The translations under genes and the position numbers were made by a program. Below the pieces are notes generated by a model that saw only the letters and a list, made by a program, of their open reading frames with translations, was not told the origin of the DNA and did not search any database. A stretch of DNA of 64,000 nt, taken from a virus. The DNA lies in IMG/VR virus record IMGVR_UViG_3300034782_000062, positions 32,001 through 96,000 of that record. One strand, 5' to 3'. Shown one piece after another: positions 2,861 through 52,146 of the stretch (positions within the stretch are counted from its first letter, which is position 1; every line of letters starts with the position of its first letter).

Positions 2861-3694
2861 CTACACCACGACCGCCCCAGTCGATATCCAAGTTTCAGCC
2901 GGCACTCCTTGGAATGCGCTGACCCAAGAGTTGTAGTTTGCCCCTGATCCCCATGTCTCTTCCATAACCGATTCGCAGGGCTGCCCGATGGCTGAGCGCG
3001 AAACAGGGCACTCGCGTGCTCCTGGATTTGCAGAAACGTGACCGGGGGCAGTATGCCCACCGTGCTCAATACCCCAGAGCACGCCTGGTGTCTGGGCCAT
3101 CTCATCTCGCACCTGAGCAATGAAGCTTCGCTCTCCTCCATCTTCGTAGGAAGCGCTGCTCCATCCGGACTCGCCTGGATTACTCGCAGAGGAGCAACCA
3201 GCCCAGCCAATCCAGCCGCCTGCTGCCATTCGAGGCCCAACCTCGCGAGCAAACGTTCGATGAGACATCCACGTCGGGAGCTGATCGTCTCCGACACGAA
3301 TTCCAGAGTGGCCAGGGCGCATGTACTGTGTCGTCGTCCCGTGGCCCACCATGATGAGATTCTTGATTCTGCGATAACGCCTCACCGCATCGAGAACATC
3401 TTGCGCGTTTCGAGCTGGATAGAGAGCCGCTCCAATGTTCGCCGCGATTCGCTCGCCAACGTGTCGGAACTCGCCAGCACCATCTCCCTCGGCGACGTAG
3501 ATGACAACGTTGTCTCCCGTCGTTACGACAGCGGTGTAGATGACACCACCGATGAGAATGGCCACGCTCAGGCCACCGGCCGCGAGCAGCAGCGGCCTTT
3601 CTTTAAGGTGATCAATGAAGTCACGCGCGACACTGAAGAATCGAGGATTCTCGTTCCACTCGTACTCAACGATGTCGGCGTCGTACTGCATCAA
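2861..3694 (-). CDS. Membrane-anchored candidate clan-CD (caspase-like / DUF4347-like) cysteine peptidase
   Basis: N-terminal TM; LIMVGHG and IGWAGCSS resemble the His-Gly and Gly-Cys dyad strands of the caspase-hemoglobinase fold. Confidence 0.45.
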   Translation of the reverse strand: MMQYDADIVEYEWNENPRFFSVARDFIDHLKERPLLLAAGGLSVAILIGGVIYTAVVTTGDNVVIYVAEGDGAGEFRHVGERIAANIGAALYPARNAQDVLDAVRRYRRIKNLIMVGHGTTTQYMRPGHSGIRVGDDQLPTWMSHRTFAREVGPRMAAGGWIGWAGCSSASNPGESGWSSASYEDGGERSFIAQVRDEMAQTPGVLWGIEHGGHTAPGHVSANPGARECPVSRSAIGQPCESVMEETWGSGANYNSWVSAFQGVPAETWISTGAVVV

Positions 3695-8528: not shown

Positions 8529-8716
8529 GTCTTTTCTCCTCCCGTTTTGATTCAGCCCTTGCGGGCCTAGCGGGTGGTCGTCCCGCTGTCTTACCTGCTA
8601 CCCCTCTCCGCGGGGCCAAACACTCCGAAATAATGTTCAAGGCCTCGGGGAAGGCGGTCGGAGAAACCGCTTTTCGGGGTGCACGTCCCTATCCCCGAGA
8701 CCATGATGACGATCAG

Positions 8717-31164: not shown

Positions 31165-32011
31165 TGTGATCCTCCTTCATGGATTCCATTGCTGCTTCGG
31201 TCTCTGCGAGCATTTCGCCCGCCGTCTTTCCTGTTTTTTCGACGCCTTCGTCGATTTCTCGCTCGGCCATAAGTTTTCTATAGCGAGCGATCGTTTGAAT
31301 GTTTTTCGCGGCGATCGCGGCGATCTGGGGGTTGTTTCCAAGAGGTCGCCAGCCGGTACAAGCCATTACCGGTCGTTCTCGCAGACTGTAAAGGCGACCA
31401 AGTCCTCCGAGGCGCAAACACCACCGGTGCGACTCCATATCTTCTTCGGTCGGCTTTCGAATGATCATTTCGATGAACGACTCGCAGGGACCAAAAGCGC
31501 AGATGCCGAGATTTACCTTCTGGTCAATCTCCAACTGACGTATCTCGGCAAGAACAAGAGAGTTTTGTACGCACGCTCTTCGGATTCTGTCCGGGTCTCC
31601 GTGACCGACCGGCTCGAACGCAGTGCAGCCCTTGATCTCGGCCTCGGTGAGGTCTGTCTGCTCGGCCCAGGTCCGTACTTTCCCACACCACCGTCCAATC
31701 TCGACATTCTGATCGGAGTCGGGCGCTGGCCCCTCAAATACGAGGCTGACGTTTTCTGTGTAGTGTCGACACTCTCCTAGACAGATGAAGTTCTCGATGT
31801 CTACGGCTGGTGGCGGATCGAGAATGCTCTGCTCGCCTTCCAGCTCTGGGAACATAACGAAGCCATCTGCATCGACGGCCATCGTAATTCCAGGAACAAA
31901 GGACTCAGCCTCCATATCGGCTCTTGCATCTGGGTCTCCAGCAGCTCTTTTGGGGTCGTCGCCAAAGATTCCTTCATCATCGTTTTCGTCGAACAGATAT
32001 CCGCCTGGCAT
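31157..32011 (-). CDS. Protein with an internally duplicated Cys-rich domain
   Basis: ICLGEC..Y...WC...C..F.P and ICAFGPC..F...WC...C..W.P. Confidence 0.8.
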   Translation of the reverse strand: MPGGYLFDENDDEGIFGDDPKRAAGDPDARADMEAESFVPGITMAVDADGFVMFPELEGEQSILDPPPAVDIENFICLGECRHYTENVSLVFEGPAPDSDQNVEIGRWCGKVRTWAEQTDLTEAEIKGCTAFEPVGHGDPDRIRRACVQNSLVLAEIRQLEIDQKVNLGICAFGPCESFIEMIIRKPTEEDMESHRWCLRLGGLGRLYSLRERPVMACTGWRPLGNNPQIAAIAAKNIQTIARYRKLMAEREIDEGVEKTGKTAGEMLAETEAAMESMKEDHNG

Positions 32012-36136: not shown

Positions 36137-36203
36137 CTCCGGCAAATGTGGTTCAATCGTCCCCAGGATGATTGAGCGGGTTCGACCCCCGCGTCGGAGA
36201 CCG
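36137..36203 (+). ncRNA. D-armless tRNA-like element 1
   Basis: 7-bp acceptor CTCCGGC/GTCGGAG, 9-nt linker with GG, 10-bp hairpin with CCA loop, T-arm GCGGG-TTCGACC-CCCGC, 3' A-CCG. Confidence 0.7.
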
Positions 36204-37326: not shown

Positions 37327-37394
37327 GCACGGCAAAGCAAGGATCGAACGTCCCCAGGACGGTCGAGCGGGTTCGACTCCCGCGCCGTGCCCCA
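37327..37394 (+). ncRNA. D-armless tRNA-like element 2
   Basis: Perfect 7-bp acceptor GCACGGC/GCCGTGC, 10-nt linker with GG, 10-bp hairpin (one mismatch) with CCA loop, T-arm GCGGG-TTCGACT-CCCGC, 3' C-CCA. Confidence 0.75.
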
Positions 37395-38325: not shown

Positions 38326-38410
38326 TTCCAGTTCGTTCCAGTGCCGTTCCAAAACTTTCCCGTCGGGGTGTGAAAGTCCCGACGGGAACCAACAGAGCGT
38401 CCCCAGGATG
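38326..38410 (+). promoter_or_regulatory. Regulatory cassette A: 4 phased TTCC boxes, hairpin, palindrome
   Basis: TTCC at 38326/38336/38347/38357; hairpin 38357-38388; CGTCCCCAGGATG at 38398. Confidence 0.6.
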
Positions 38411-38432
38411 GACGTAAAACAGGAGGGACAAC

Positions 38433-38798
38433 ATGTCTGAGCAAACCGAAGCACAGGGCAAGCCCATCGCCGCCACCTACGAGGGAATGCTCCAACTCGC
38501 CCTCGCTGGACGACGTGGGAGCTTAATGAAGGCTGCGCCGCTCCCCAAGCCCGAGGAGTGCACCGAAGAGGACATCCCTGTTCTTTGCAAGAACATCGAG
38601 TCACTGAACACTTTTATCGGCGAGCTGATCGACCTCGTCGGCGAGAAGGAGCGCAAGCTCAACCTCGCCTTGGAGGCCCACGCCATTCGCACCGAGGGGC
38701 TCGACGACATGCTCGAAACGCTCGACTCGATGCGCGCCCAGATCATCAGCGTGCGCGACGAGAGCGGCGAGCTACTCGAAGAGATGGACGCAGACTGA
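38433..38798 (+). CDS. Hypothetical coiled-coil protein
   Basis: RBS and ATG; 121 aa. Confidence 0.75.
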   Translation: MSEQTEAQGKPIAATYEGMLQLALAGRRGSLMKAAPLPKPEECTEEDIPVLCKNIESLNTFIGELIDLVGEKERKLNLALEAHAIRTEGLDDMLETLDSMRAQIISVRDESGELLEEMDAD

Positions 38799-38816
38799 CC
38801 ATCCCCAGGACGAATA

Positions 38817-38908
38817 TTCCAATCTGTTCCGGCGACATTCCAAACCATTCCCGGCAGGGTGTGAGAAGCCCTGGCGGGGACCACTAAACAACATGCGTCC
38901 CCAGGACG
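38817..38908 (+). promoter_or_regulatory. Regulatory cassette B, same architecture as A
   Basis: TTCC at 38817/38827/38838/38848; hairpin 38848-38880; CGTCCCCAGGACG at 38896. Confidence 0.6.
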
Positions 38909-38925
38909 CAGAGAGGAGGGACACC

Positions 38926-39171
38926 ATGAGATGTATGTGCGGAGGCTGCCACGACTGCCTGGCAGCACAAGGCGGATACGACATTCCCGAGGAGTGCCCA
39001 GTATGCGGAAAGCCCAACGCTGACGAGGATGGCGAGCCTGTGTATCCCCAGGACTCGGCATTCTGCTCGGAGCACTGCGCCAACGAGTACGCCGCTGACC
39101 AGCGCTTCCACGACCACAACCTCTACCTCGATTATGTCGAGACTGAGCGGCTCATCGAGGAGACGTCATGA
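38926..39171 (+). CDS. Small zinc-finger protein
   Basis: CMCGGCHDC, CPVC, FCSEHC. Confidence 0.7.
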   Translation: MRCMCGGCHDCLAAQGGYDIPEECPVCGKPNADEDGEPVYPQDSAFCSEHCANEYAADQRFHDHNLYLDYVETERLIEETS

Positions 39172-39581
39172 CTATCAAAGGACTAATCGACGACATCAAA
39201 GAGGCGAAGGAGTGCGTGCATGATGTCGGAGCGACTCCAGTTGCCGACATCATCACGACTTGCGATCAGGCCGACATGTGTCTTCAGGACGCTCTGATCA
39301 GACTCGAATCCCTGGACGGTGTGCCAACACGGCGGTTTGATGACTGGCTTCTCATCATCAACGAATCATACTCAGACTACGACGTCGAGGATCACGCAGC
39401 GTTCACACTGGCACAGTTCCTCGACGTTCTCATTAACCACTTCTCCATCCCACCGCCCTCGGAACAACCCGACTCTCCTCCCTACTACGAATGCCCATCG
39501 TGCGAGTTTCGCGATCGCGCACAGCCCGCTCGGTGTCCGTGCTGCGGTACTCCAGGTGATTCATTCGAGTTCGAGGAGTGA
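39168..39581 (+). CDS. Hypothetical protein with C-terminal zinc ribbon
   Basis: YECPSC...RCPCCG; ATGA coupling. Confidence 0.7.
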   Translation: MTIKGLIDDIKEAKECVHDVGATPVADIITTCDQADMCLQDALIRLESLDGVPTRRFDDWLLIINESYSDYDVEDHAAFTLAQFLDVLINHFSIPPPSEQPDSPPYYECPSCEFRDRAQPARCPCCGTPGDSFEFEE

Positions 39582-39658
39582 GTGACTTTCTCTCGCCGCT
39601 GGCCTTGGAGCTGGCAGCGAGGGACCAGCGGCGTCCCCAGGACGCGAGGAGGGATAAA

Positions 39659-40036
39659 ATGCTTTTTCCAAGAAGACGACGAGTCGTGACGGACATCAAG
39701 TCCGTCTCTCTGGAGGCTGGCGCCAAGCAACTCGCTCGCAAGCTCACCGAGATGACGTGGTGCGGCTGTAATGGGTTTCGTCTTGGGGATTATCTCTTCC
39801 TCAATGACTCGACGAGCCCGGACGGAGCCCAGGAGTACGCTGTCGTTCACGAGCCGAGCATGCTTCAGTGCGAGAGCATCACGTTTAGTTGGTGCAGCCG
39901 CGCCAAAGCACTCGAATACATCCTCAAGACGATTCGCGGCGAGTTCAAGCCGTGGCGCGAGCCCACCCTGCCCAAGCCTGGCCAGCTCATCATCCAGACC
40001 CAGGACGAACACGGGACCTGCGTTCACTGCGCATAG
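39659..40036 (+). CDS. Conserved mobile-element hypothetical protein (GFRLGDYLFLNDSTSPDGAQEYAVV)
   Basis: Palindrome and RBS precede the ATG at 39659. Confidence 0.7.
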   Translation: MLFPRRRRVVTDIKSVSLEAGAKQLARKLTEMTWCGCNGFRLGDYLFLNDSTSPDGAQEYAVVHEPSMLQCESITFSWCSRAKALEYILKTIRGEFKPWREPTLPKPGQLIIQTQDEHGTCVHCA

Positions 40037-40045
40037 GAGGCTCAA

Positions 40046-40363
40046 GTGAGACAAGCAAAACGAAACCTCATGGGCAGGCAAGAATGCGCGACCTGTGAGC
40101 AGGTCATCGAACCCCGTCAAGGCGAGGAATACCACGGCGCCTGCAAATGCTCCACTTGGCACTACTACGAAGAGGGCGGCTGGTATCATCTGGAATTTAT
40201 GGCGCACGTTTCGCGCCTTCGCGAGCGAGCCGAAAGCCATATCAGCCGCAGGACCACCACCGTTTTCGATGTTTGCTCAGAGCACGGGCAGATGCTCGAC
40301 AACGTCCAACACATGGAATGGCTCGTCCTCGCCGTCATGGACGAGCTGGAAGAGTGGAGATAA
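40046..40363 (+). CDS. Hypothetical protein
   Basis: GTG start after GGAGG; CATC/CKC. Confidence 0.6.
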   Translation: MRQAKRNLMGRQECATCEQVIEPRQGEEYHGACKCSTWHYYEEGGWYHLEFMAHVSRLRERAESHISRRTTTVFDVCSEHGQMLDNVQHMEWLVLAVMDELEEWR

Positions 40364-40392
40364 TCGTCCCCAGGACGAAGAAAGGAGATGAT

Positions 40393-40647
40393 ATGCCCCA
40401 AACCGAGCCGGTCGAAGCCGATTCTGTATGGACACAGTTCGGCGAAGCGATCGGAGCTTTCGTCAATCACCCGGACTACTACAAGGGTCGCTGGTTCGTT
40501 CAGTGGCGCGGCGGTCGTCGGGTCTGCTCGAATCACACCACCGCTTCCGCATGGTGCAAGTACCTGCGCCGCAACTTCAACGACGGCTGGACCGCAACCA
40601 TCGGTCGGGCCGACCCTCTGCCGGGATTCCCTCGGCGGCTCCATTAA
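40393..40647 (+). CDS. Hypothetical protein
   Basis: Palindrome and GAAAGGAG leader. Confidence 0.65.
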   Translation: MPQTEPVEADSVWTQFGEAIGAFVNHPDYYKGRWFVQWRGGRRVCSNHTTASAWCKYLRRNFNDGWTATIGRADPLPGFPRRLH

Positions 40648-40759
40648 CCTTTAACACCTTCTCTGTTGCAGCAGCTTTCGCGTGCAACAGGGACCAGTTT
40701 TTTTGTCAGAAGTCAGCAACTATGTTCGTCCTGTACAATGGACGAAGAAAGGAGCAGCC

Positions 40760-41233
40760 ATGCTTGCAGCATTGGTCGCAGAAGAAATCAAGCGTATGGA
40801 GCACGAGGACCAGTGCCCATGCCTCCCTTGCTCGATCAACTCGCTCCTACGTGACGTCGGTCGCTGGAAGCACATGCACGGGGAGTGCGACTGCCCGGTC
40901 TGTGAGCGCGGAATCGAGGCGATCACCAAGCACGGTAACGAGCTTGAGCGCATGAAGGCCGAGTACGAAAAGCGTCTTGAAGACGCAGACACAGACGACA
41001 TCGTCATCATCACACCTGAGCGGCACGCGCAGGCCGAAGAAGCTCGAAAGCTCATCCCCGTCATGGAAGCACAGATGGCGATGCTCGTCGCCACAATCGC
41101 TGAGCTTCTCGAAGACTTCCACCTCACTCTGAGAGCAGCCCACGCGGCTTTCGACGCCATCGCTGGCGAGCGGCAAGAGCCCGAGGCTGTTGTCGTTCGA
41201 CTTCAGCCTCGCCACGACTTCAGCATCAACTAG
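40760..41233 (+). CDS. Cys/His-rich protein with coiled coil
   Basis: GAAAGGAGCAGCC-ATG; CPCLPC...HMHGECDCPVC. Confidence 0.7.
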   Translation: MLAALVAEEIKRMEHEDQCPCLPCSINSLLRDVGRWKHMHGECDCPVCERGIEAITKHGNELERMKAEYEKRLEDADTDDIVIITPERHAQAEEARKLIPVMEAQMAMLVATIAELLEDFHLTLRAAHAAFDAIAGERQEPEAVVVRLQPRHDFSIN

Positions 41234-41509
41234 CTACCAATAGACAAACAAAAAATCCTCAAGACGGTTAGCTTTCGCGCCGCTTGAGGACCATGGTTCT
41301 CGACGCTGGAGGCGTCGGTATGCCGAGTTATCACGAATGAAGGCCAGGGTGGTAACGCCCCCATGTCACAGACGGGAGAAAGGCATGAAAAGGCCGACCG
41401 AGAAGGGAAGGCGTGGATGAAAGCCATCGAACCGGTGTAGATGGTGAGTAAGGTACGGCTTCGAGAATCATGTTTTTAGCGTCTACAGGACGCAGAGAGG
41501 AGGGATACC

Positions 41510-41938
41510 ATGAAGAAACGACAGTATGAAATGTATGTTGGGTTTGGAGTGCCCGGCGGACACTGGAACACCAAGTTCATCGAAGCCTCAACGCCCGAGG
41601 AGGCAGAAGAGAAGCTGCTCGAAAGACTGGACCGCGAAGGTGTTGAGCACGTCTCGTTTGTCGGCGTCTACCATGAGGGCGACATCATCGAGGACGGCGA
41701 AGACGATGAAGACGAGGACTGGAGCGCCTACTGCGACTACGAACTGAGCGACAACCAAAAGCAGTTCGTTCGGGACGCCGAGGAGCAGGGGCTCGAAATC
41801 AATTGGGACTATTCCGGTCGAGGCATGTTCGGAAAGTGCTGCCCCGCCGTCATGGTCGATGGGCTCGGCGAGTTTCACACGACAGCAAACTACGAGTCCG
41901 ATAGCATGGGGCTCGGGTTCGTCATCTACGCCCGGTAA
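41510..41938 (+). CDS. Hypothetical acidic two-domain protein
   Basis: RBS; YSGRGMFGKCCP motif. Confidence 0.75.
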   Translation: MKKRQYEMYVGFGVPGGHWNTKFIEASTPEEAEEKLLERLDREGVEHVSFVGVYHEGDIIEDGEDDEDEDWSAYCDYELSDNQKQFVRDAEEQGLEINWDYSGRGMFGKCCPAVMVDGLGEFHTTANYESDSMGLGFVIYAR

Positions 41939-42047
41939 TAATTCATCCCCAGGACTGAGTAATACGTTTTCTCTCGTTGGTCAGCTTTCGCGCAGCGAGG
42001 GACCATCGCGTCGCAGAATCTTTCGCGTCGCAGAGAGGAGGGATACC

Positions 42048-42743
42048 ATGTCTGATATGAAGTGCCCCAAGTGCGGGTACGACGGCGGTTGGTTCAGCAT
42101 TGAAGCGACATCCGTATTCCAAGTCGCCCCTGACGGCACTGACGATTATGGCGACGTCGAGTGGAACGATAACTCATCGTGCCAGTGCTCCGAGTGCTAT
42201 CACGAGGGAACGGTTATCGAGTTCACGCCAGTTCTTCCGCGAGTCAAAGAGAAGCTAATCGAACTGGCTGGCTACGTTGACTCGGCTGACATCCAGCTCA
42301 TCGACGCGATCCGGGGCATCGCCGACCACTGCGAATACAAAACCGAGAATCAGGTTTTCGATGAGCTGCTAAAACTCGGTCACGAGATCGTGGACGCCGA
42401 GTCGTTCGACGAACTGACGGTACTCGATCTGTTCATGTGCGCCCACTGGCTCACCCGATGCCAGTATCACGAGATCATTCTCTGCTACGACGATCGGAGC
42501 TGGGACAACGTCTATGTCCGCGCACCGTCCGCCGAGCAAGCGCGCCTCGTCGCCTACGACGAGAATTCTGCTCCCTACGCTTTCCATGTTCAAGAAATCC
42601 CCGAGACTGAGCTTTCCGACTACGCGATCGACATCGGAGAGCAGCCCTTCGACTGGAAAGAGGACCAAACTCAGCGTGCATTCGAGGAGGCCGGGAAGCT
42701 CGCTGACAGCGCCGTGGCAGATGCGCATCAGGAGGACGACTGA
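42048..42743 (+). CDS. Hypothetical protein with N-terminal zinc ribbon
   Basis: KCPKCG...CQCSEC. Confidence 0.75.
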   Translation: MSDMKCPKCGYDGGWFSIEATSVFQVAPDGTDDYGDVEWNDNSSCQCSECYHEGTVIEFTPVLPRVKEKLIELAGYVDSADIQLIDAIRGIADHCEYKTENQVFDELLKLGHEIVDAESFDELTVLDLFMCAHWLTRCQYHEIILCYDDRSWDNVYVRAPSAEQARLVAYDENSAPYAFHVQEIPETELSDYAIDIGEQPFDWKEDQTQRAFEEAGKLADSAVADAHQEDD

Positions 42744-42934
42744 TGGCAACACAGGACAGATGGAACAAGTGGGGCCAGCATTGGCTTGCCACGCTGGAGG
42801 AGATGGAAGAGAACGCCGAGTCACCCGACGAGGAGCTGACCACCTTCGAGCGCAACCTCAAAGAGCAGTTGCAAACTATGGTCGTCCGTCCCCAGGACGA
42901 GGAAGGAAAGGACCATGACACCGACCGAGATTGA
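42743..42934 (+). CDS. Small hypothetical protein
   Basis: TGATG coupling. Confidence 0.55.
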   Translation: MATQDRWNKWGQHWLATLEEMEENAESPDEELTTFERNLKEQLQTMVVRPQDEEGKDHDTDRD

Positions 42935-43229
42935 AATGCTCAAGCTCCACGACAAGTTCCTCGCATTTATTAAGCGAGGCAGAATCAAGTGGGAAATGCT
43001 GCCCATTAAGGACCACCCAGAGGCGATGGGCTACACCGGCACCTACGGACGATCTCCTCTCTGGCGTTTCGTTGTCGCTTCATTCGACATCGAGAACCAG
43101 GGCTTCCCCCCCGGATCCAAGGGCTATGATGGCACCGCGACCGATCTTAGCAGCGGGCGCGTCATCCATTTGCCCCGCGAGACCGCTACCGCTCTCGGCC
43201 AGGACGCTGAAAAGGCGTTTATTCAGTAA
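42915..43229 (+). CDS. Hypothetical protein
   Basis: Palindrome and RBS upstream. Confidence 0.7.
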   Translation: MTPTEIEMLKLHDKFLAFIKRGRIKWEMLPIKDHPEAMGYTGTYGRSPLWRFVVASFDIENQGFPPGSKGYDGTATDLSSGRVIHLPRETATALGQDAEKAFIQ

Positions 43230-43259
43230 AAATCCCCAGGACGAAGAAAGGAGCTGACA

Positions 43260-43598
43260 TTGCGCGTCTGGTATCCAATCCCCCCGCTCTGCCTCGACGG
43301 CCCGAGGCTCACGGGCGTTCACAACGAGATTCACGCCATTAACAACATCATCCTCGACCCCGAGAAGGGCTATCAACATCACCCCGAGGTCAACCGCTGG
43401 CGCGGCTTCCTACCCGCGCTCGCTGCCTATCACGACCTCGTCGTCCAAGAATCCTGGCGACGAGGCTGGAAGATGGGCACCAACCACAAGACACCACTCT
43501 TTCACGACGGCCCGGTCGTGTGGCCCGAATTCATCGAGCCGATCGAGGTCATGCGTGCCAAGCTCGCAGCAAAGTGGGCCGCAAAACTCGCCGCGTAA
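43260..43598 (+). CDS. Pyrimidine-dimer DNA glycosylase (T4 endonuclease V-like) family protein
   Basis: MRVW...P..L...RL.G.H.E.H...HHP...W.G...L..YH....E...RG....H.TP; TTG start after GAAAGGAG. Confidence 0.65.
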   Translation: MRVWYPIPPLCLDGPRLTGVHNEIHAINNIILDPEKGYQHHPEVNRWRGFLPALAAYHDLVVQESWRRGWKMGTNHKTPLFHDGPVVWPEFIEPIEVMRAKLAAKWAAKLAA

Positions 43599-43664
43599 TC
43601 CCCAAGACGAACATACATCCTCGGCGTGGTCAGCTTCCGCGCACGCCGAGGACCGAGGTACGAA

Positions 43665-43958
43665 ATGAAAGAACGTTTTTTAATCGTGACGGACGGTGGC
43701 GGCGAGGACTTTTACTATCACCTCGTCAAGCCGAGCATCTGGGAAGAGTACGGACGGGAGTGCAAAAGGACGAAGCACTACTCTCGTGGCTCGGTCATGT
43801 CTGCGGTTAATGACCGGCTCTTTCCTAACGGTGATGTCTACGAGGCGATCATAGAGAATGAAAGCCCCGACGAAGACTTCGCCTTTTTCACAAACGCCTT
43901 CGAGGTTTTTCGGTTCTGCGAGGAGCATGGGCTGAAGATTGTCGGTGGCATCGGATAA
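43665..43958 (+). CDS. Hypothetical protein
   Basis: GAGG RBS and ATG. Confidence 0.6.
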   Translation: MKERFLIVTDGGGEDFYYHLVKPSIWEEYGRECKRTKHYSRGSVMSAVNDRLFPNGDVYEAIIENESPDEDFAFFTNAFEVFRFCEEHGLKIVGGIG

Positions 43959-43990
43959 AATCCGTCCCAAGGACGGGGAAAGGAGCAGCC

Positions 43991-44803
43991 ATGACTGTTT
44001 TTTACTGGACCGTCATCTACTCGCACCGGCACGGGACCGACGCCTGGCCGGTGTTCGCTCATCAGTGCAAAGACCCTGAACGCGGCCCGACCGAGGAAGA
44101 GGTCATCGCCATCATTGGCGAGGATCTTTACGAGCCAGACAGCGAGGACGAATGGATCGAAATCGGCGGTCGCCAGACGATCGAGCTTCCCGATCACAAC
44201 GAGCTTCACTTCTGGCGCAAGACAGCCGCCGAGCTTTACGGGCTCGCCAGCGAGAGCACCATCGAGGAGCACCTGAGCGAGTTGCAGCAGCGACGATGCA
44301 CTGCAGCCCTCAACGATGAAGTCGCCGAGGGTATTGAGGACGAACCGACACCCGTGCCGACTCACTCCTTGCCACCCACCGAGACTTGGTACACCTGGCG
44401 CATCCTGGCGACGGTTGAGGGAGAAACAACCCGAAGACTCCTTGTTCCATGGTCTGACCCTCACAAGCACGAGTTCGCCTTCGATTTTATCTACAAGACG
44501 CCCGAAGAAGCCCGCGAGGGCCTGAAGACAATGGGCGCAGAAGACGACGCCGAAGAAGAGGGCTGGATTCTCTGCAAGAAGACCCTGATCCCCATCGAGC
44601 GCCTTCAGGGTGAGCCAACCCCTCGACCTCTCCCACAGACGATGCCTTCGTCCGAAGACATTTACCGAGAGCGAGCCCGAGAGTTTTTCCGACACGAGCT
44701 GGATGAGAACGACTGGGACATCGACGACGAACCCCAGGTCTCAGAGAGCAACGACGGAGCTTACGTCTCCATCTGGCGTTGGTTCCCAGCCGAAGACGAG
44801 TAA
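43991..44803 (+). CDS. Hypothetical multi-domain acidic protein
   Basis: GAAAGGAGCAGCC-ATG; 270 aa. Confidence 0.75.
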   Translation: MTVFYWTVIYSHRHGTDAWPVFAHQCKDPERGPTEEEVIAIIGEDLYEPDSEDEWIEIGGRQTIELPDHNELHFWRKTAAELYGLASESTIEEHLSELQQRRCTAALNDEVAEGIEDEPTPVPTHSLPPTETWYTWRILATVEGETTRRLLVPWSDPHKHEFAFDFIYKTPEEAREGLKTMGAEDDAEEEGWILCKKTLIPIERLQGEPTPRPLPQTMPSSEDIYRERAREFFRHELDENDWDIDDEPQVSESNDGAYVSIWRWFPAEDE

Positions 44804-44890
44804 CCTGTCATCCCACCATCATCTCTGTCCCCGGCTGATACCCGAGGACAGGGACCAAAATTTCGTCCCCAGGACGAGTAAGGAGGGACC

Positions 44891-45091
44891 ATGAAAGCGC
44901 GTTGCCCGAACGACACGAACCACAGAAGGTTCATCACCGTGACGCATGTCACCGAGGACTGGGTTGTCGATGAGAACGGCGAGTACGTGGAATCTGCCGA
45001 CTCTGGTGTCGGCGAAGTTGTCCACGGCCCCGACCCCGACAACACCTGGACCTGTAACGAGTGCGGTGCCGAGGCAGTCGTCACTGACTAG
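44891..45091 (+). CDS. Small zinc-ribbon protein
   Basis: CPND...WTCNECG. Confidence 0.7.
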   Translation: MKARCPNDTNHRRFITVTHVTEDWVVDENGEYVESADSGVGEVVHGPDPDNTWTCNECGAEAVVTD

Positions 45092-45103
45092 AAAGGAGCA
45101 GCT

Positions 45104-45580
45104 ATGCCCAAGTTCACTGTACGAGTCCATGAGACACACCTGGCCGACTACGTGGTCGAGGCCGAAAATCCACAGGACGCCATCGAATCCGTCAGGAACG
45201 GTAACGGCGAGCTTGCCGACGACTCGGTGGAGTTTCTGCATCTTGCTGACGAGGCGAACTGGGCAGTTTTCGAGGGAGACCAGTACGACCTCGAAGGCCC
45301 GGAACTATCGAACGATGCTGTCTGGTCAGCAGCGCACGCTTGCGAACAGCTTGAGGAAGAAATCCTGAAGATGCTCGGTGCAAAGCGCGGAACTTCCGAG
45401 GTGGAGCAAGAGCTGGTCGAGCACATGGACGAGCTTGTTCACGACGTCGCCTCCAAGGAGGGAAGCGACGTCAACAACGGTGGCCTCTCCGAGCAGCTCG
45501 AATGGCTCTGGAACGAGCTTGGTGCCGAGCACGCTCGAACGACCATCATTGAGCACGTCAAGCAGTTGAGGGCGCCATGA
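45104..45580 (+). CDS. Hypothetical acidic protein
   Basis: GAAAGGAGCAGCT-ATG. Confidence 0.75.
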   Translation: MPKFTVRVHETHLADYVVEAENPQDAIESVRNGNGELADDSVEFLHLADEANWAVFEGDQYDLEGPELSNDAVWSAAHACEQLEEEILKMLGAKRGTSEVEQELVEHMDELVHDVASKEGSDVNNGGLSEQLEWLWNELGAEHARTTIIEHVKQLRAP

Positions 45581-46164
45581 GCTACTGCGAATGGTGCGGA
45601 AACAAACCCACCGCCGAGAAGGGCTCGTGCCCCGACTGCTTCCATCTACTCGATGGACCACTCCTCCCGGCCAAGGATGCCTTTGATCTCATCAACGACC
45701 GATGGGGAACCTGCTGCAAGGGAATCATCCTGACGATGATAACTCACATCCGGTCCCCGAACACGGCTGGCATCCCCGAGGGCGCGGACATCGACCTTTC
45801 CGACGCCGAGGTCGAAGAGCGAATCGACCGATCGCATCTGTTCATCCATCCCAAGCATGACGCTGGTGTTTCCAACAATGGCACCATGGGAGTCGAGTGC
45901 GGCATCAACCTCTACTGCGGCTTCGCTCGCTGCTACTGGATATTCGACGGCGGCGACAACACCGAGTCATTCGAGTACGGACCCGAAATCCCCTACTCGA
46001 TCGGCGAGAAACGTTTTTTCGAGGCCGTGGAAACCATCCTCGATGCAGCAGCGGACGAAGCCGAGGGCCTCGGCTACGCGCAGTGCTCCATGTGCGGCGA
46101 TCACTACCTCGCCGATGCTGGTCTCTACTGCGAGTGCCAGGTCCAACGCTCGATCGAGCCGTAA
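45577..46164 (+). CDS. Hypothetical protein with terminal Cys clusters
   Basis: CEWC..CPDC; CSMC..CEC. Confidence 0.7.
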   Translation: MSYCEWCGNKPTAEKGSCPDCFHLLDGPLLPAKDAFDLINDRWGTCCKGIILTMITHIRSPNTAGIPEGADIDLSDAEVEERIDRSHLFIHPKHDAGVSNNGTMGVECGINLYCGFARCYWIFDGGDNTESFEYGPEIPYSIGEKRFFEAVETILDAAADEAEGLGYAQCSMCGDHYLADAGLYCECQVQRSIEP

Positions 46165-46177
46165 GGAGGAGGGAGCC

Positions 46178-46423
46178 ATGAAACTCAAACACTGCGTCCT
46201 GGCGATGGACACATCTGGCGACGAAATCGGCTGCATCCCGATGCCTCACGACACCGTTTTTCTCGCCGTCACCGCATGGACGACCAAGTACGAGCTGGCG
46301 CTTCTCACCAGCGGCTCTCACACCGCTCTTCTCCAGCGCTACCACGACAGCGGCGAGAAGTTCATCTGGGAGGGCCGCGAAGTCGGCGGCTTCGAGGTCG
46401 TCAGCGAGCCCATCATCGAATGA
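46178..46423 (+). CDS. Small hypothetical protein
   Basis: GGAGGAGGGAGCC-ATG. Confidence 0.6.
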   Translation: MKLKHCVLAMDTSGDEIGCIPMPHDTVFLAVTAWTTKYELALLTSGSHTALLQRYHDSGEKFIWEGREVGGFEVVSEPIIE

Positions 46424-46485
46424 ATAAATCCTGCCCTGCGATGTGTGAAAAGCATCTCAGGGCACCATAAGGGAAAGGAGGTGAG

Positions 46486-46782
46486 ATGGCGGAACGCCGA
46501 TCAAGGCGAAGAAAAAAGAAGACTGCCGCAGACTTAAGAAGGCACGCGATTGTCTCGGCTTCAGTCCGCTACGGCATCGACCTCGACGACGAAGGGAGGG
46601 AAGAAATCCTGGAGATGATCAGGGCAGGAACAAGAAACAAAGACTGCGCCTGCATCGAACGCCAGAGCAGAAAGCGAACCCTCTGGCGTATTCGCTTTCG
46701 CAACCAAGTCTGCGGAGTGGTCTACGACTCGGACTTTCACGAGCTGGTCACGTTCATTCCGAAAGACGACCCACGGCTGTAA
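46486..46782 (+). CDS. Phage-type hypothetical protein (RH...RYG...VVYD...LVTF)
   Basis: AAGGAGGT RBS. Confidence 0.7.
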   Translation: MAERRSRRRKKKTAADLRRHAIVSASVRYGIDLDDEGREEILEMIRAGTRNKDCACIERQSRKRTLWRIRFRNQVCGVVYDSDFHELVTFIPKDDPRL

Positions 46783-46897
46783 CAACAGCCACAACATCAA
46801 CCGACTTCACAGAATCACGAAGTCAAAGTCGACGTTGGTTACACCTAACGTCTACGTGCTGCCGCGAAGCGCGAGCAGTACGAAAGGAGGCAGATCC

Positions 46898-47953
46898 ATG
46901 GGAGGTCAAGCGTTCAAGGGTCCAAGGCTCAACGGCTTCTTCCTCGACCCCGACGAGATCGTTCTGGTCGGAGGCAACGGCCCAAACGACGTCCCCAAGA
47001 CGGCTGAACTTGCACACCTGTACGACAAGCGCGTCCACGACAAGCCTGACGAGGGCATGGTCCGCAACATGATGGTCTACGGCGTCATCGAGGCCGTGAA
47101 GGTCCAGAAGATCGTCAGCGACGACGGAGAGAACCGCGCCTACGTCATCGACGGCCGTGGTCGAGTCATCGCAGCTCGCGAGGCGAACGTGCGTCTCCGC
47201 AGGGAGGGCAAGGAGCCGATCCTGGTTCCGATCGTCCTCAAGACCGGTGACCCGTCCAAGCTCTTCGGCATCCTCATCTCGGCGAACGAGAACCGTCGAG
47301 ACGACACCCCCATCGCCAAGGCTGAGAAGATCGCTCAGTTCATGGATATGGGGCGCGACGAGGAGGCGGCGGCGAACGCCTACGGTATCACCGTCGCCAA
47401 CGTGCGGCAGCTCCTCAAGCTGCTGGACCTCGCCCCGAAGGTGCAGACCATGATCAAGAAGGGCACCCTCTCGGCGTCGGCTGCCACTCAGCTCGTCAAG
47501 CTCCCACATGCGGAGCAGGTCACGAAGGCCGAGGAGGTCATCGCGAGCGGCGTCAAGCCGACGGCTCGGAATATCAGCCGCTCTACCGGAAACCGCCCGG
47601 TCACTCCATCGAAGCGCGTCGTGCAGAAGCTCGTCGCCCTCGACAAGAAGCCCGAAATCGCGGAGAAGTACGACTCCTTCTGGGGCGCCCTCCAGTTCAT
47701 GCTGGGCCAGGTAACCCTGGAGGACGTCGGCCTCGCCGAGGTCGTCGCGGAGCTGAAGGCCAAGAAGAAGAAGGCCAAGAAGGGCAACGCGAAGGGCTCG
47801 AAGAAGGGCAACTCCAAGCAGCAAACGTTGCCGCTCGACGAGAAGGGCAAGAAGTCCCCGGCCAAGACCACCTCCAAGACCAAGACCCCGCCGAAGAAGG
47901 GTCCGACCATCGCGAAGAAGAAGGGATCCGCGAAGAAGGACGCCGCCGCCTAG
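46898..47953 (+). CDS. parB: ParB/Spo0J-family DNA-binding protein with HTH and Lys-rich tail
   Basis: GVIEAVKV...YVIDGRGRVIAA...ENRRDD...HTH AAANAYGITVANVRQLL; AGGAGG RBS. Confidence 0.85.
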   Translation: MGGQAFKGPRLNGFFLDPDEIVLVGGNGPNDVPKTAELAHLYDKRVHDKPDEGMVRNMMVYGVIEAVKVQKIVSDDGENRAYVIDGRGRVIAAREANVRLRREGKEPILVPIVLKTGDPSKLFGILISANENRRDDTPIAKAEKIAQFMDMGRDEEAAANAYGITVANVRQLLKLLDLAPKVQTMIKKGTLSASAATQLVKLPHAEQVTKAEEVIASGVKPTARNISRSTGNRPVTPSKRVVQKLVALDKKPEIAEKYDSFWGALQFMLGQVTLEDVGLAEVVAELKAKKKKAKKGNAKGSKKGNSKQQTLPLDEKGKKSPAKTTSKTKTPPKKGPTIAKKKGSAKKDAAA

Positions 47954-47993
47954 TCCGTTCTGGACGACATCACCATCTTCAAGACGAAAGACA

Positions 47994-48057
47994 GACCAGG
48001 GTTTTCCAGATCATCTGGAGGACGGTGACCGGGGTTCGACTCCCCGGCCTGGTCCCA
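47994..48057 (+). ncRNA. tRNA-like element 3 (variant topology)
   Basis: GACCAGG/CCTGGTC stem, 10-bp hairpin with TCA loop, GGTGA linker, CCGGGG-TTCGACT-CCCCGG arm, 3' CCA. Confidence 0.65.
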
Positions 48058-48068
48058 AGGAGGTCTCA

Positions 48069-48389
48069 ATGTCATCAGATGACAAAGTTCCAATACCGAA
48101 ACTTTCTGTACATCAGTGGGCAGCTCTCCTCCGCATGAAGGACTGGAACTGGGCATTCCCAAAGAATGGACACAGAGCCAACGGCCTACTACGGACGATT
48201 CGGAGTTTGCAACGCCTCGGTCTCGCAGCGTGGCTTGAACCGGGTGATACCAACCACTACGGATCGACGGTAGACGGCTATGGCTGGGACCTGACACCAG
48301 AAGGATACGCTCTTGCTCGTCAAGAGCACAGGCGCGAGCACGAGAACCCCAAGGTGCGCCGGGTGCTCTACCGGCTACGCCTCCCATAG
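48069..48389 (+). CDS. Hypothetical protein, possibly winged-helix
   Basis: TIRSLQRLGLA...WDLTPEG pattern; AAGGAGG RBS. Confidence 0.6.
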   Translation: MSSDDKVPIPKLSVHQWAALLRMKDWNWAFPKNGHRANGLLRTIRSLQRLGLAAWLEPGDTNHYGSTVDGYGWDLTPEGYALARQEHRREHENPKVRRVLYRLRLP

Positions 48390-48427
48390 GCATATAACTT
48401 CGTCCCCAGGACGAGAAAGGAGCAGCC

Positions 48428-48880
48428 ATGTTCGTCATGAAGTGTGACGTCTGCGGCAGAACAATCGAGATCGACCGGGACAACCCCGGCGACTCGATCA
48501 GAGAGCAAGTCAAGGGCGACTGGAGACAAGTCGAAGACTTCGACGGCAACACCTTCGACATCTGCCACGAGTGCAACAAGAAAGGCCACGTTCCCGCAAT
48601 CCTCAAGATGGAGGAGAACGGCTACTGGGAGCGGACCAGCACTCACTCACTCCTTTTCCACAGCCACGACAGTGTTCCCTCTCCCACTCTCTTCGGCGTC
48701 AACGTTCACGTCGTCGCGATCGAGGTGAAAAAGCGCGACCACCGCCGCGCCATAAACCAAGAGTCCCAGGACGAGTTGAACTGTGTCATTAGAGGCACCG
48801 GCTCCGAAGAGAGCGAGCTGCTGACAACAGAAATCGATGGGAAGCCGCACATCGTCTGGGTGGCGCCCCATGAAGTCTAA
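48428..48880 (+). CDS. Hypothetical protein with N-terminal zinc finger
   Basis: KCDVCG...DICHEC; palindrome and GAAAGGAGCAGCC leader. Confidence 0.7.
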   Translation: MFVMKCDVCGRTIEIDRDNPGDSIREQVKGDWRQVEDFDGNTFDICHECNKKGHVPAILKMEENGYWERTSTHSLLFHSHDSVPSPTLFGVNVHVVAIEVKKRDHRRAINQESQDELNCVIRGTGSEESELLTTEIDGKPHIVWVAPHEV

Positions 48881-49484
48881 CATCCCAGCACCGCACGGAT
48901 ACGCCTTCGTGCTCAACAGCAACACCAGAAAGGGATCGCGCTTTCACCTGGCCGACGCGAGCGGTCGTCCCAAGTGCGGAACCAAGGTAGACGTCAGCGC
49001 CTTGGAGCGCGAATGGGAGATACCCGTCAGCTACGACCCCTGCAAAAGGTGTTTCCCGAAAGGAATCAATCCAATGAACGACGCCAATCATATGACTCCA
49101 GAAGAGTTCGACCGGGTCATGCTTCTCTCGTCCAACGGCGAGATTGAGTGTGATGGCATCGTCATCATCCCAACGGACAGGGTCGATCAGTCGGGCTACC
49201 GAATCATGGATTTTGTCGTCACCGTGACGCCGGATCGCAAGCCTGTGGGCCGCATCAGCGAACTCGGCATGAACGCGCACGACGTCTTCGAGCTGACCGA
49301 CATGCGCGGCACTCGGACTCGGTCCATCGGCGACGAGCCGGTACGGCTCCCCGAGTGGAAGTGCGACTGCCTTCAGCGCAGCGGCTTCCTCTATATCACT
49401 CCATCCTGGGGACGGATCAGGGTCAGCCACGACACGGCGACGGTCCACATCCGTCTCATCAGCAACGACGAGGCCCAGAAATGA
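48870..49484 (+). CDS. Hypothetical protein
   Basis: H...CG...C..C in the N-terminal part; coupled to neighbours. Confidence 0.6.
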   Translation: MKSNIPAPHGYAFVLNSNTRKGSRFHLADASGRPKCGTKVDVSALEREWEIPVSYDPCKRCFPKGINPMNDANHMTPEEFDRVMLLSSNGEIECDGIVIIPTDRVDQSGYRIMDFVVTVTPDRKPVGRISELGMNAHDVFELTDMRGTRTRSIGDEPVRLPEWKCDCLQRSGFLYITPSWGRIRVSHDTATVHIRLISNDEAQK

Positions 49485-50311
49485 ACGAGCGCTGCCAGTT
49501 CTGCATCGACCCGAAGTGCGAGGGGCGAAGAGATTGCGATTGCGAGAGCTGCGACAAGCGCGACTGCTGCTACCGCACTCTTCGCCCCACCATTCGGTTA
49601 ACTCTCAAATGCACCCAGAAATGTGGCCACTGCTGCTGGTCCTCATCACCCCAGCAGGATAAGCACATGCCCCCAGAGGTCGCAGAGCTGGTTCACCAGT
49701 TCCTCGACGCAAACCCCATCCACTCGGCGAACATCATGGGCGGCGAGTTCTGGCTCAACCCGGACTGGGAAGAAGTCCTGGGGATGATCGTTGAGGGGCT
49801 CGACTACGCTCGCCTAGTCACAAACGGCGACTGGGCCGCGGACGAACAGTCCTCAAGACAAGTCCTCGAATTCATGGAGTCCCACGAGCACTGCTTCCTC
49901 GCCATCACCACCGACAAGTGGCACACAAACAAACATGTGGTCACGGCAGAAGAGTTCTGCAAGGAGCACAACCTGCTTCACAAGGTCGGAGGCGACGAGA
50001 GCGACATGGGGATCGTTCCGGTCGGGCGCTCTGCGTTCGACATGAGCCTCTTCGGGATGATGGCTTGCTACTGCCACAACCCTGTTAACAAGTATACGTT
50101 CTTAATAGACGAGGACGGCGTCATCTATAAGTGCGCCTTCGGCACCTGGGACTACGATCGCGTCCACAACTTTGTCTCAGGTGGCTTCCCCGAGCGCTTC
50201 AAAGAGTTCAACGAAAAGTTCTACGGGATGTTCGTCGGGAGCTGCTCCCAGTGTCGCCGAGCCTACGCCTTCGGCACCAAAAGGAGCCGCGTTCAAGAGA
50301 TGGTCGGGTAG
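49481..50311 (+). CDS. Radical SAM protein with N-terminal Cys cluster and SPASM/Twitch-like C-terminus
   Basis: CTQKCGHC (CxxxCxxC), MGGE, C-terminal CYC...CAFG...CSQC. Confidence 0.85.
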   Translation: MNERCQFCIDPKCEGRRDCDCESCDKRDCCYRTLRPTIRLTLKCTQKCGHCCWSSSPQQDKHMPPEVAELVHQFLDANPIHSANIMGGEFWLNPDWEEVLGMIVEGLDYARLVTNGDWAADEQSSRQVLEFMESHEHCFLAITTDKWHTNKHVVTAEEFCKEHNLLHKVGGDESDMGIVPVGRSAFDMSLFGMMACYCHNPVNKYTFLIDEDGVIYKCAFGTWDYDRVHNFVSGGFPERFKEFNEKFYGMFVGSCSQCRRAYAFGTKRSRVQEMVG

Positions 50312-50409
50312 CACAGGCGTTCATCCCCAGGACGCCCGTGGGATCGTGACCACCACTAATAAGTCCTGGTCACTCTGAGAAAGTGGCCAGGGCTCCAAGG
50401 AGGCAACAA

Positions 50410-52146
50410 ATGTCCAGAACCATCGTTTTCAATTTTGGAGGCCGTGCACCAACAAAAAACGCACAGCTCGTTCATGACAACATCTACCACGGGCACAACT
50501 ACTACAATAAGCTCATCGAGCTAGAACGTTGTTACCGCAAGGCAATTCGCGCAGCCCAAGCCGAGTTCCCGGAGATCGCAAAAGCTCAGGCACTCTTCGA
50601 TAACGCTGAAGAGGCTGTTGACGGATTGATCGCGCTAAAAAAACTAGCCAAGTCAAGCGACTCAAGTATTACTCCACCAACGCCCGATGAAATGAAAAAG
50701 GCTGTTGCCGAAAAGAAGGCGGCGGCTGCAGCTCTCAAAGACGCCAAGGCCCCTCATGCTGATTCATTGCAAACCAAATACAAGGCAGCCAAGGATGAGC
50801 TAACGGCATCTATAAAAAAGGCTCGATCCGAGACCGAAACTTTCTGGGGAACCTATCTGTGCATCGAGCGAGCGTTTCAGCAAGCCAAGAAAGCAAAGCC
50901 TATTTTTAAGCCTGGCAAAAAGCGCCCCCCATGGACCGAACGGCCAGCGTGGCGAAAATGGACAGGCCATGGTGTTGTTGGCATGCAAATTCAGAATGGG
51001 ATGCCAGCAGAGAACCTGTTCAAACCTAACACGAGATGTTACATAGATCCCCTTCCAGCCAATGCGTACAACACGAACATTCCCCGTGGCCAACGCCGCA
51101 AGATGCAATACACAACCATCCATTTGCGCGTAGGATCTGAAAACAGAAAACCCATATGGGCTGACATCCCCGTTTACCTGCACCGGGGCTTTCCTGCTGG
51201 CGCGATTGTCAAATGGGTATGTGTTATCCGAACCCCATGGCATCAACATCAAGCCTACAAATGGCAGGTACAAATCACTCTTGAGGTCCCCGACGCTTTT
51301 CCAAAAACCAACAAAAAAGCCGTTGCCATTAATTTAGGTTGGCGCAAACTAGCCGATGGATCCCTTCGAGCAGCCACCTGGGTGGATACTGACGGTCAAT
51401 CGGGCGAGATTATTCTAAGCGACAAGGAATTCAGAGATCGTATTGAAAAATACAACAACCTACGATCGATTCGAGACAAACTGATCGATGAAATCCGGCC
51501 TAAGCTCATCATGTCCGGCATCAACTGCGCCAAATGGAAAAGCCCCGACTCTTTTCAAAAACTTTCTCGTCGCGAAGACTTAACCGACGAACAGAGCGCA
51601 ATTTTGAAACCCTGGGCCTACAAAGATAGGCATCTCAATTGGTATGCCCGTGGTGTAAAAAATGGCGCCCTAAACCACCGGCGCGATGTCTATCGAAAGT
51701 TCGCTCTTTACATAGCGACAAACTACGACATCATCATCGCCGAAAAATACGACATGAAGAACATTGTCGAAGACGAAGATCGGAAAAGAGGTCCAGCGGG
51801 TCAGCGGGTTGAAGCTGCCCCATCCATTGCCAGGCAGATCATCGGCAGCACCGCGACACGGCTCGGGTGTCACATTATCGAGGGCCAAACCACATATGCA
51901 ACCCAAGAGTGCTTTTTTTGCGGTTGCACAGAGCCATGGGATGCCTCTGGTAACATCATGCACACCTGCCAGGAATGTGGTGAACATTGGGACCAGGACA
52001 TCAACAATGCCAAGAACATGCTCGCGAGAGCCGCTGATGCAATCAACTCCCTGGACCCGCTCGCACCTAAAAAGTCAAAGAATTACGGATGGAAATCGGT
52101 ACAAGAAAAGAAAAAACAAGGAGATAACGAAGACCACACTGATTAA
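50410..52146 (+). CDS. cas12m: Type V-M-like CRISPR effector (Cas12m-like, TnpB-derived), RuvC-I Asp replaced by Asn
   Basis: 578 aa; HNYYNKLIEL helical/coiled-coil N-terminus, FWGT, VYLHR, AINLGWR (RuvC-I), IIAEK (II), CFFC/CQEC zinc finger, DQDINNA (III); CRISPR array 63 bp downstream. Confidence 0.8.
   Translation: MSRTIVFNFGGRAPTKNAQLVHDNIYHGHNYYNKLIELERCYRKAIRAAQAEFPEIAKAQALFDNAEEAVDGLIALKKLAKSSDSSITPPTPDEMKKAVAEKKAAAAALKDAKAPHADSLQTKYKAAKDELTASIKKARSETETFWGTYLCIERAFQQAKKAKPIFKPGKKRPPWTERPAWRKWTGHGVVGMQIQNGMPAENLFKPNTRCYIDPLPANAYNTNIPRGQRRKMQYTTIHLRVGSENRKPIWADIPVYLHRGFPAGAIVKWVCVIRTPWHQHQAYKWQVQITLEVPDAFPKTNKKAVAINLGWRKLADGSLRAATWVDTDGQSGEIILSDKEFRDRIEKYNNLRSIRDKLIDEIRPKLIMSGINCAKWKSPDSFQKLSRREDLTDEQSAILKPWAYKDRHLNWYARGVKNGALNHRRDVYRKFALYIATNYDIIIAEKYDMKNIVEDEDRKRGPAGQRVEAAPSIARQIIGSTATRLGCHIIEGQTTYATQECFFCGCTEPWDASGNIMHTCQECGEHWDQDINNAKNMLARAADAINSLDPLAPKKSKNYGWKSVQEKKKQGDNEDHTD

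Follow-up and report, generated by a model that had tools for sequence, protein, structure and literature searches.

Genomic context of the parB boundary

We analyzed a 64,000-nt stretch of DNA (positions 32,001 to 96,000 of IMG/VR record IMGVR_UViG_3300034782_000062; referred to as the window) from an uncultured wetland phage. The phage genome is 182,770 bp long (~183 kb), is ~95% complete by CheckV, and carries 31 tRNAs and a complete tmRNA at 166-183 kb. A parB-like gene was found on the plus strand at 46835..47953 (Pfam HTH_ParB, 2.8e-11; phrog_1033, 1.2e-29). Because the genome contains no ParA-type ATPase (no AAA_31 or CbiA match), this parB was considered to be an orphan. A weak 4-bp palindrome with a 5-nt spacer lies right after the parB stop (47954..47966, plus strand) and, judging from its sequence, is a degenerate relative of the dispersed operator palindrome. 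A 64-nt tRNA-like fold, denoted element 3, is located 40 nt after the parB stop (47994-48057, plus strand), between parB and the next ORF. The first-pass annotation of this DNA had placed the fold just after parB and a copy of the palindrome. The position after parB holds, but the sequence at 47954-47966, with its 5-nt spacer and more than two mismatches to the dispersed palindrome, is not a copy of it.

An AGGAGG Shine-Dalgarno sequence (48058-63, plus strand) adjoins the CCA end of element 3 without a gap. It precedes an ORF of 106 amino acids (48058..48389 from Shine-Dalgarno to end, plus strand; ATG at 48069), for which we found two homologs, P0016 (92% identity) and P0017 (72% identity). 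No sigma-70-like promoter or plus-strand terminator was found at 46.0-50.5 kb, which fits co-transcription. Neither an RNase P RNA nor a CCA-adding enzyme was found to be encoded by the phage when the genome was searched. The tRNA-His of the phage (G000 169830-169906, outside the window) has G1-U72 and A73 and no G-1. This rare type, known from a subgroup of alphaproteobacteria (PMC3064791), may point to an alphaproteobacterial host.

Other features of the window were also identified. A pyrimidine-dimer DNA glycosylase (Pyr_excise, 3e-19) is encoded among the early genes at 43260-43598 (plus strand), and a 587-amino-acid TnpB/Cas12f1-like protein, with a TNB domain and matches to transposase PHROGs, is encoded at 50383-52146 (plus strand). 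Directly before the latter gene is a hairpin of 12 bp followed by TCCA, whose CCA abuts the AGGAGG of the gene. The sole Rfam match in the window above the gathering score was an int-alpA RNA (8625-8699, minus strand, 40.3 bits), located between genes of 215 and 1171 amino acids on the minus strand.

Architecture of element 3

The 5' strand of the acceptor stem (47994-48000) pairs with 48048-48054 to form a 7-bp stem. Next comes a 10-bp hairpin with a UCA triloop (48001-48023), in which 48001-48010 pair with 48014-48023 across the loop TCA; two of the pairs are G-U (T48003-G48021 and T48004-G48020). This hairpin occupies the place of the anticodon arm, without a 7-nt anticodon loop. A 5-nt junction linker, GGTGA (48024-48028), leads into the T arm (48029-48047), which has a 6-bp stem (48029-48034 with 48042-48047) and the 7-nt loop TTCGACT, and which carries the motif GGTTCGAnTCC at 48033-48043. 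The acceptor 3' strand (48048-48053), the discriminator C48054 and an encoded CCA (48055-48057) complete the element. Only 28 nt separate the acceptor stem from the T arm. The first-pass annotation had described the stem, hairpin, linker, T arm and CCA at these same coordinates, and RNAfold reproduced the fold.

The minimum free energy and centroid structures from RNAfold were both this three-way junction (-35.9 kcal/mol, z -3.46), in which none of the 23 base pairs is broken; no shuffle out of 200 matched its stability. The minus strand folds to only -28.8, ~7 kcal/mol weaker, because the G-U pairs turn into A-C mismatches there. The fold is far beyond chance and strand-specific. Four wetland DNA runs contained element 3, with zero variants in the element.

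The acceptor/T stack is better parsed as 12 bp followed by C73 and CCA than as 13 bp followed by CCA. In the 12-bp parse, the 6-bp T stem stacks with six acceptor pairs, 47995-48000 are positions 1-6, A47995-T48053 is pair 1-72, and 48055-57 form a regular CCA end. G47994 is then position -1 and can pair with C73, an arrangement found in standard bacterial tRNA-His.

We scanned the whole 182,770-bp genome with a strict rule that combined a T loop (TTCRANY), a 12-bp acceptor/T stack and NCC[A/G]. Outside the phage tRNA array, the matches were exactly element 3 and two other elements, element 1 (36137..36203, plus strand) and element 2 (37327..37394, plus strand). Shuffled genomes gave a mean of 0.01 matches, with any match in 2 of 200 shuffles. 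Element 1 has a tRNA-like fold without a D arm, in which the operator palindrome forms the long arm, and element 2 has the same architecture. In both, the stack consists of 7 + 5 bp and is followed by ACCG in element 1 and CCCA in element 2. The earlier description of element 3 as a third D-armless tRNA mimic on the sense strand, with the geometry of elements 1 and 2 and different stem sequences, is thus borne out.

Relationship of element 3 to element 2

The closest relative of the 3' half of element 3 was found to be element 2. When these 3' halves were aligned with MAFFT (alignment A4), 26 of 36 positions were identical, compared with at most 21 for every phage tRNA and 18 of 36 for the phage tmRNA, and an identical 8-mer (AGGACGGT) was present before the T arm. 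In element 2, this 8-mer makes up the paired 3' strand in the hairpin of the operator palindrome; in element 3, the GGAC of the 8-mer pairs, partly through G-U pairs, with a new 5' strand, and the rest is the unpaired linker. The hairpin had been described as unrelated to those of elements 1 and 2. The stems do differ, but the 3' strand keeps the GGAC half-site, so the hairpin is not wholly unrelated.

The alignment also changes the reading of the GG-containing linker, which had been taken for an elbow linker moved to the 3' side of the hairpin. Because GGTGA aligns with the paired 3' strand at the base of the element 2 hairpin, the linker is most simply regarded, on this alignment, as a vestige of the old hairpin strand rather than a relocated elbow-forming loop. 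From tRNA geometry, we infer that a junction linker of 5 nt cannot reach the T loop. Similarly, the YCA loop proposed as a shared feature of the three elements is, in elements 1 and 2, merely the centre of the dispersed operator palindrome.

Element 3 has lost the 5' operator half-site but has regained an arm of 10 bp, which fits selection on RNA shape. The same geometry with differing stems, together with a module of the same class after the parB of a relative whose spacer is unrelated in sequence, would also fit the earlier proposal that shape rather than sequence is selected; the covariation for element 3 rests on paralogs in one genome.

A shared rule for thirteen elements

Ten further sense-strand intergenic hairpins, with ~12 layers followed by NCCA or NCCG, were identified at 38358..50397 (plus strand; starts at 38358, 38849, 39590, 40661, 41257, 41971, 43619, 44823, 46433, and 50363). 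They have 11-14 stacked layers (mode 12) and either 6-8-nt loops or a common cap motif. The rule "12 bp + N + CC[A/G]" fits 13 elements (elements 1-3 and the ten hairpins), which lie in sense-strand spacers of the early operon at 36-51 kb. A loose scan for hairpins followed by NCCA was uninformative, with a background of ~30 matches per strand, and only the strict rule separated signal from noise. Using strict hairpin criteria, we found 7 hairpins on the plus strand at 36-51 kb, where 0.146 were expected (maximum 2 in 500 shuffles), and none on the minus strand of the same region.

A T precedes the stem in 10 of the 13 elements (p about 1e-5), and the phage's own tRNAs have the same bias (22 out of 31). 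The full CCA is encoded in 11 of the 13 elements compared with 9 of the 31 phage tRNAs on recount; the Fisher p of 0.002 was computed with 10 of 31, which makes it a conservative value. Only three of the 13 have a true T loop together with a third arm. Element 3 departs from the series at two positions: it has A or G instead of T at -1, and a pyrimidine discriminator, C, instead of a purine. A CCA adjoining AGGAGG was observed at element 3 and again at the hairpin starting at 50363.

In many of the hairpins at 38358-46467, the 3' strand and tail (…GAGGGACCA) are close to the ribosome-binding-site/spacer consensus of the phage (…GGAGGGAC[A/C][A/C]…ATG), and the 5' strands of these hairpins are pyrimidine-rich. 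This likeness may reflect coincidence, origin by duplication, or a second function. As a likeness between sequences, it hints at another or additional role for the hairpins.

Related phages

Two loci, L002 and G001, were available for comparison. Searches of IMG/VR with ParB, two ParB alignments, the AAA ATPase and the downstream ORF yielded one distant record only, and a metagenome scan for relatives yielded one locus (L002). L002, a metagenome contig, encodes a ParB with 50% identity, and its spacers are unrelated in sequence to those of the window. It contains three plus-strand hairpins of 12-13 layers within 6.1 kb, each followed by GCCA, compared with 0.065 expected; none of 1000 shuffles reached three. 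One of these (3387-3420, plus strand, 12 layers) is located in the spacer that separates the parB stop (3300) from the following ATG (3461), and its loop resembles that of the window's 44823 hairpin. The hairpin at 515-551 has a cap motif of the same kind as the capped hairpins of the window. Another hairpin, with ~19 predicted pairs, lies right after parB (L002:3321-3361). The post-parB spacer, which comprises 145 nt with two further hairpins, folds at z -4.5. Such folding may reflect either a larger structured RNA or a site for ParB.

G001 (IMGVR_UViG_3300022680_000058) is a 148-kb IMG/VR record with a ParB that is 33% identical. It encodes a complete phage tmRNA (tag ANTDSYPEMSLAA*; L001:3938-4303) that starts 26 nt after the parB stop, the position that element 3 has in the phage studied here. 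No ordinary tRNA genes were found in G001. It does contain three odd-bodied RNAs with a tRNA acceptor stem, a canonical T arm, ACCG or ACCA ends and non-tRNA bodies of 54-110 nt, located in a mostly non-coding stretch of 1.4 kb upstream of parB (L001:1628-1712, about 2254-2404, and 2553-2685). Plain hairpins followed by NCCA were not in excess in G001 (6 versus 4.2 expected). Taken together, the L002 hairpin, the G001 tmRNA and element 3 place an RNA of acceptor-stem type at the parB boundary in three phages. No sequence-level ortholog of element 3 was found in either L002 or G001.

Candidate identities of element 3

We compared element 3 with known RNA classes. It is not a canonical bacterial tRNA: the bacterial mode of ARAGORN found 0 genes in the window, no Rfam tRNA match exceeded the threshold, and the element has no D arm and an arm loop of 3 nt rather than 7. 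The mitochondrial mode of ARAGORN calls it a D-armless tRNA with a forced anticodon. A tRNA-Sec was rejected (RF01852, 22.7 bits and E 1.4 against a gathering score of 47), and the UCA of element 3 is a triloop rather than part of a 7-nt anticodon loop. The tRNA-like domain of a tmRNA was rejected because pair 3-70 is C-G, the discriminator is C, and ARAGORN reported no tmRNA here. Local similarity to tmRNA was no better than to ordinary tRNAs, which also argues against a tmRNA remnant. The hairpin sequence has neither a second copy nor a complement in the genome, and an antisense target was therefore rejected.

The first-pass annotation had also suggested that the 3' half might match the end of a host tRNA gene, as in an attP. 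The exact 23-mer spanning the T arm and the acceptor 3' strand was absent from 185,579 genomes, one per species. A relaxed 21-mer gave six matches, about the chance level, of which five were non-tRNA and one was a tRNA-Trp. The only integrase of the genome lies 54 kb away. Element 3 was therefore not considered to be an attP.

Proposed role

We propose that element 3 is a cis-acting tRNA-like processing signal in the early polycistronic RNA of the phage, and we give this reading a probability of roughly 0.55. A 12-bp stack with a 7-nt loop and a 3' NCCA is the minimal shape accepted by RNase P RNA. Element 3 would offer RNase P its 12-bp stack, a genuine T loop and a 3' N-CCA as binding and measuring features, and a cut at its 5' edge is proposed because these are features that RNase P reads. 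Not all features are typical, in that the 12-bp stack and CCA are present but the discriminator is C, not a purine, and position -1 is G or A, not U. The substrates of bacterial RNase P are not limited to tRNAs but extend to phage RNAs and operon mRNAs, and the P15 loop of the RNase P RNA pairs with 3' RCCA (PMC11143913). At a stable G-1/C73 in tRNA-His precursors, RNase P shifts its cut by one base (PMC3064791). Given the G-1/C73 context of element 3, the cut is predicted before G47994 or A47995.

Under this proposal, host RNase P would cut the 5' edge and thereby end the parB message, after which the 3' end would be trimmed, at the CCA or just beyond it, by the host's tRNA 3'-end enzymes. 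These steps would depend on the host because genes for RNase P RNA and for a CCA-adding enzyme are missing from the phage. Of the two cuts, the 3' one is the less certain, since RNase Z acts poorly on substrates that encode CCA. The outcome would be either the release of a tRNA-like RNA of ~61-64 nt or a structured 5' cap left on the downstream message, whose ribosome-binding site begins at the base after the CCA. The 10-bp third arm would be a tolerated passenger in place of the D and anticodon arms. We infer the transcription of element 3, its cuts and the enzymes involved.

Alternative explanations

It is also conceivable, if rather unlikely, that the small CCA-ended RNA is itself the point of the element. 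Such a trans-acting tRNA mimic might be a decoy or sponge for a tRNA-cutting defence nuclease, the CCA-adding enzyme, SmpB or Ro60, or might serve as an amino-acid acceptor. The true T loop and third arm, confined to three of the 13 elements, exceed the needs of a cut mark, and the phage has invested heavily in tRNA biology, as its 31 tRNAs and tmRNA illustrate. In addition, the pair that G47994 can form with C73 before the CCA is the classical histidine identity pair, and G-1/C73 is a major HisRS determinant in standard bacteria (PMC3064791). However, element 3 has no anticodon loop and no partner protein is encoded beside it. Histidine acceptance is further lowered by the phage's own tRNA-His, which is of the G1-U72/A73 type without G-1. 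The alphaproteobacterial HisRS for such a tRNA reads the anticodon and U72, not G-1 (PMC3064791), and histidine charging in the likely host is therefore improbable. Also unlikely is an uncut structural mRNA element that protects the 3' end of parB or the next 5' end, or that tunes translation of the downstream ORF. The juxtaposition of CCA and AGGAGG at element 3 and at 50363 speaks for this, as does the resemblance of the hairpin 3' strands and tails to the ribosome-binding-site/spacer consensus, but it leaves the fixed 12-bp length, the NCCA, the tRNA-like base at -1 and the canonical T loop unexplained, and there is no U tract for termination. A combination in which the ten plain hairpins are routine punctuation, while the three T-loop elements persist after excision as trans-acting CCA-ended mini-tRNAs, seems quite unlikely. 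Those mini-tRNAs might sequester a tRNA-directed defence nuclease of the host or some other factor that binds tRNA, and element 3, given its G-1:C73 pair, might even become charged with an amino acid.

The hairpin arm could alternatively be mainly a DNA site, parS-like or operator-like, at which ParB or another protein binds. It contains a perfect 7+1+7 palindrome of 15 bp (48005-48019) located 50 bp downstream of parB, the equivalent arm of elements 1 and 2 is the dispersed operator palindrome, and a long palindrome also follows the parB of L002. Centromeres of the parS type usually come in several copies or with a ParA partner. We regard a DNA site here as very unlikely, as the 15-bp palindrome occurs as a single copy in the genome, there is no ParA partner, the two G-U pairs and two further pairs of the arm exist only in plus-strand RNA, and the acceptor stem, T arm and CCA would be left unexplained. 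The least probable reading is a functionless relic, either the decayed end of a tRNA or tmRNA or an attP core derived from the 3' end of a host tRNA. The D-armless call in mitochondrial mode, the relaxed 21-mer match, which is to a tRNA-Trp of gut Coriobacteriaceae, and the tmRNA at the equivalent position in G001 could be taken to point in this direction. A decayed host tRNA had been raised in the first-pass annotation as well, but the 23 pairs are intact, the 3' half is closest to element 2, and element 3 is one of 13 elements under a single rule. The G3-U70 and A73 of tmRNA are absent, the similarity to the tmRNA end (18/36) is lower than that to element 2 (26/36), and the 23-mer, 21-mer and integrase results described above stand against an attP core. 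The relic reading has thus been largely refuted.

Comparison with known systems and significance

The closest described analogues of our proposed processing signal are the t-elements of plant mitochondria (Forner et al. 2007, PMC1920247), which are tRNA-like folds in mRNA precursors with the motif GGTTCRANYCC. RNase P and RNase Z recognize these elements, whose borders match the ends of mRNAs, and plain acceptor-like stem-loops also serve (PMC1920247). Like t-elements, element 3 combines a non-canonical tRNA-like body and an acceptor stem with a GGTTCRANYCC T arm, here in the sense-strand spacer between parB and the next ORF. It differs in belonging to a phage operon, in its encoded CCA and D-armless three-way junction, in being part of a series of 13, and in that its cutting is a prediction.

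The tRNA-like domain of tmRNA, an RNase P substrate, resembles element 3 in having an acceptor stem and T arm, no D stem, and a long helix in place of the anticodon arm, whereas element 3 lacks G3-U70, has C73 rather than A73, and has neither an mRNA-like domain nor pseudoknots. D-armless mitochondrial tRNAs (metazoan mt-tRNA-Ser AGY) likewise have an acceptor, an extended arm on the anticodon side, a short linker on the variable side and a T arm, but they decode with a 7-nt anticodon loop, in contrast to the 3-nt loop of element 3. The acceptor/T-stem hairpins used as RNase P model substrates (PMC11143913) share the 12-bp stack, 7-nt loop and 3' NCCA; they are laboratory constructs, and element 3 differs from them in its pyrimidine discriminator, in the pair that positions -1 and 73 may form, and in its additional 10-bp arm. 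RNase P also matures some phage RNAs, among them the C4 antisense RNA precursor of P1/P7 and the M3 RNA of phi80 (cited in PMC11143913). Like the putative RNA of element 3, these phage transcripts have a tRNA-like acceptor or CCA feature, and there the cut is made by host RNase P, but they are single regulatory RNAs rather than repeated operon punctuation. Searches of the full-text literature on tRNA-like processing in phages gave no account of phage operons punctuated by tRNA-like elements. We consider element 3 to be a new architectural variant of a known signal type.

The analysis of element 3 removes the trivial explanations of an attP or a dead tRNA and shows that the tRNA-like fold can accommodate a rebuilt body. 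In related phages, the parB boundary is marked by a module of this class, although the spacer sequence is not conserved. If the proposed role is true, host RNase P would dissect the early transcript at 13 built-in tRNA look-alikes, and a bacterial virus would be using the "tRNA punctuation" logic of mitochondria to set the ends and lifetimes of its messages.
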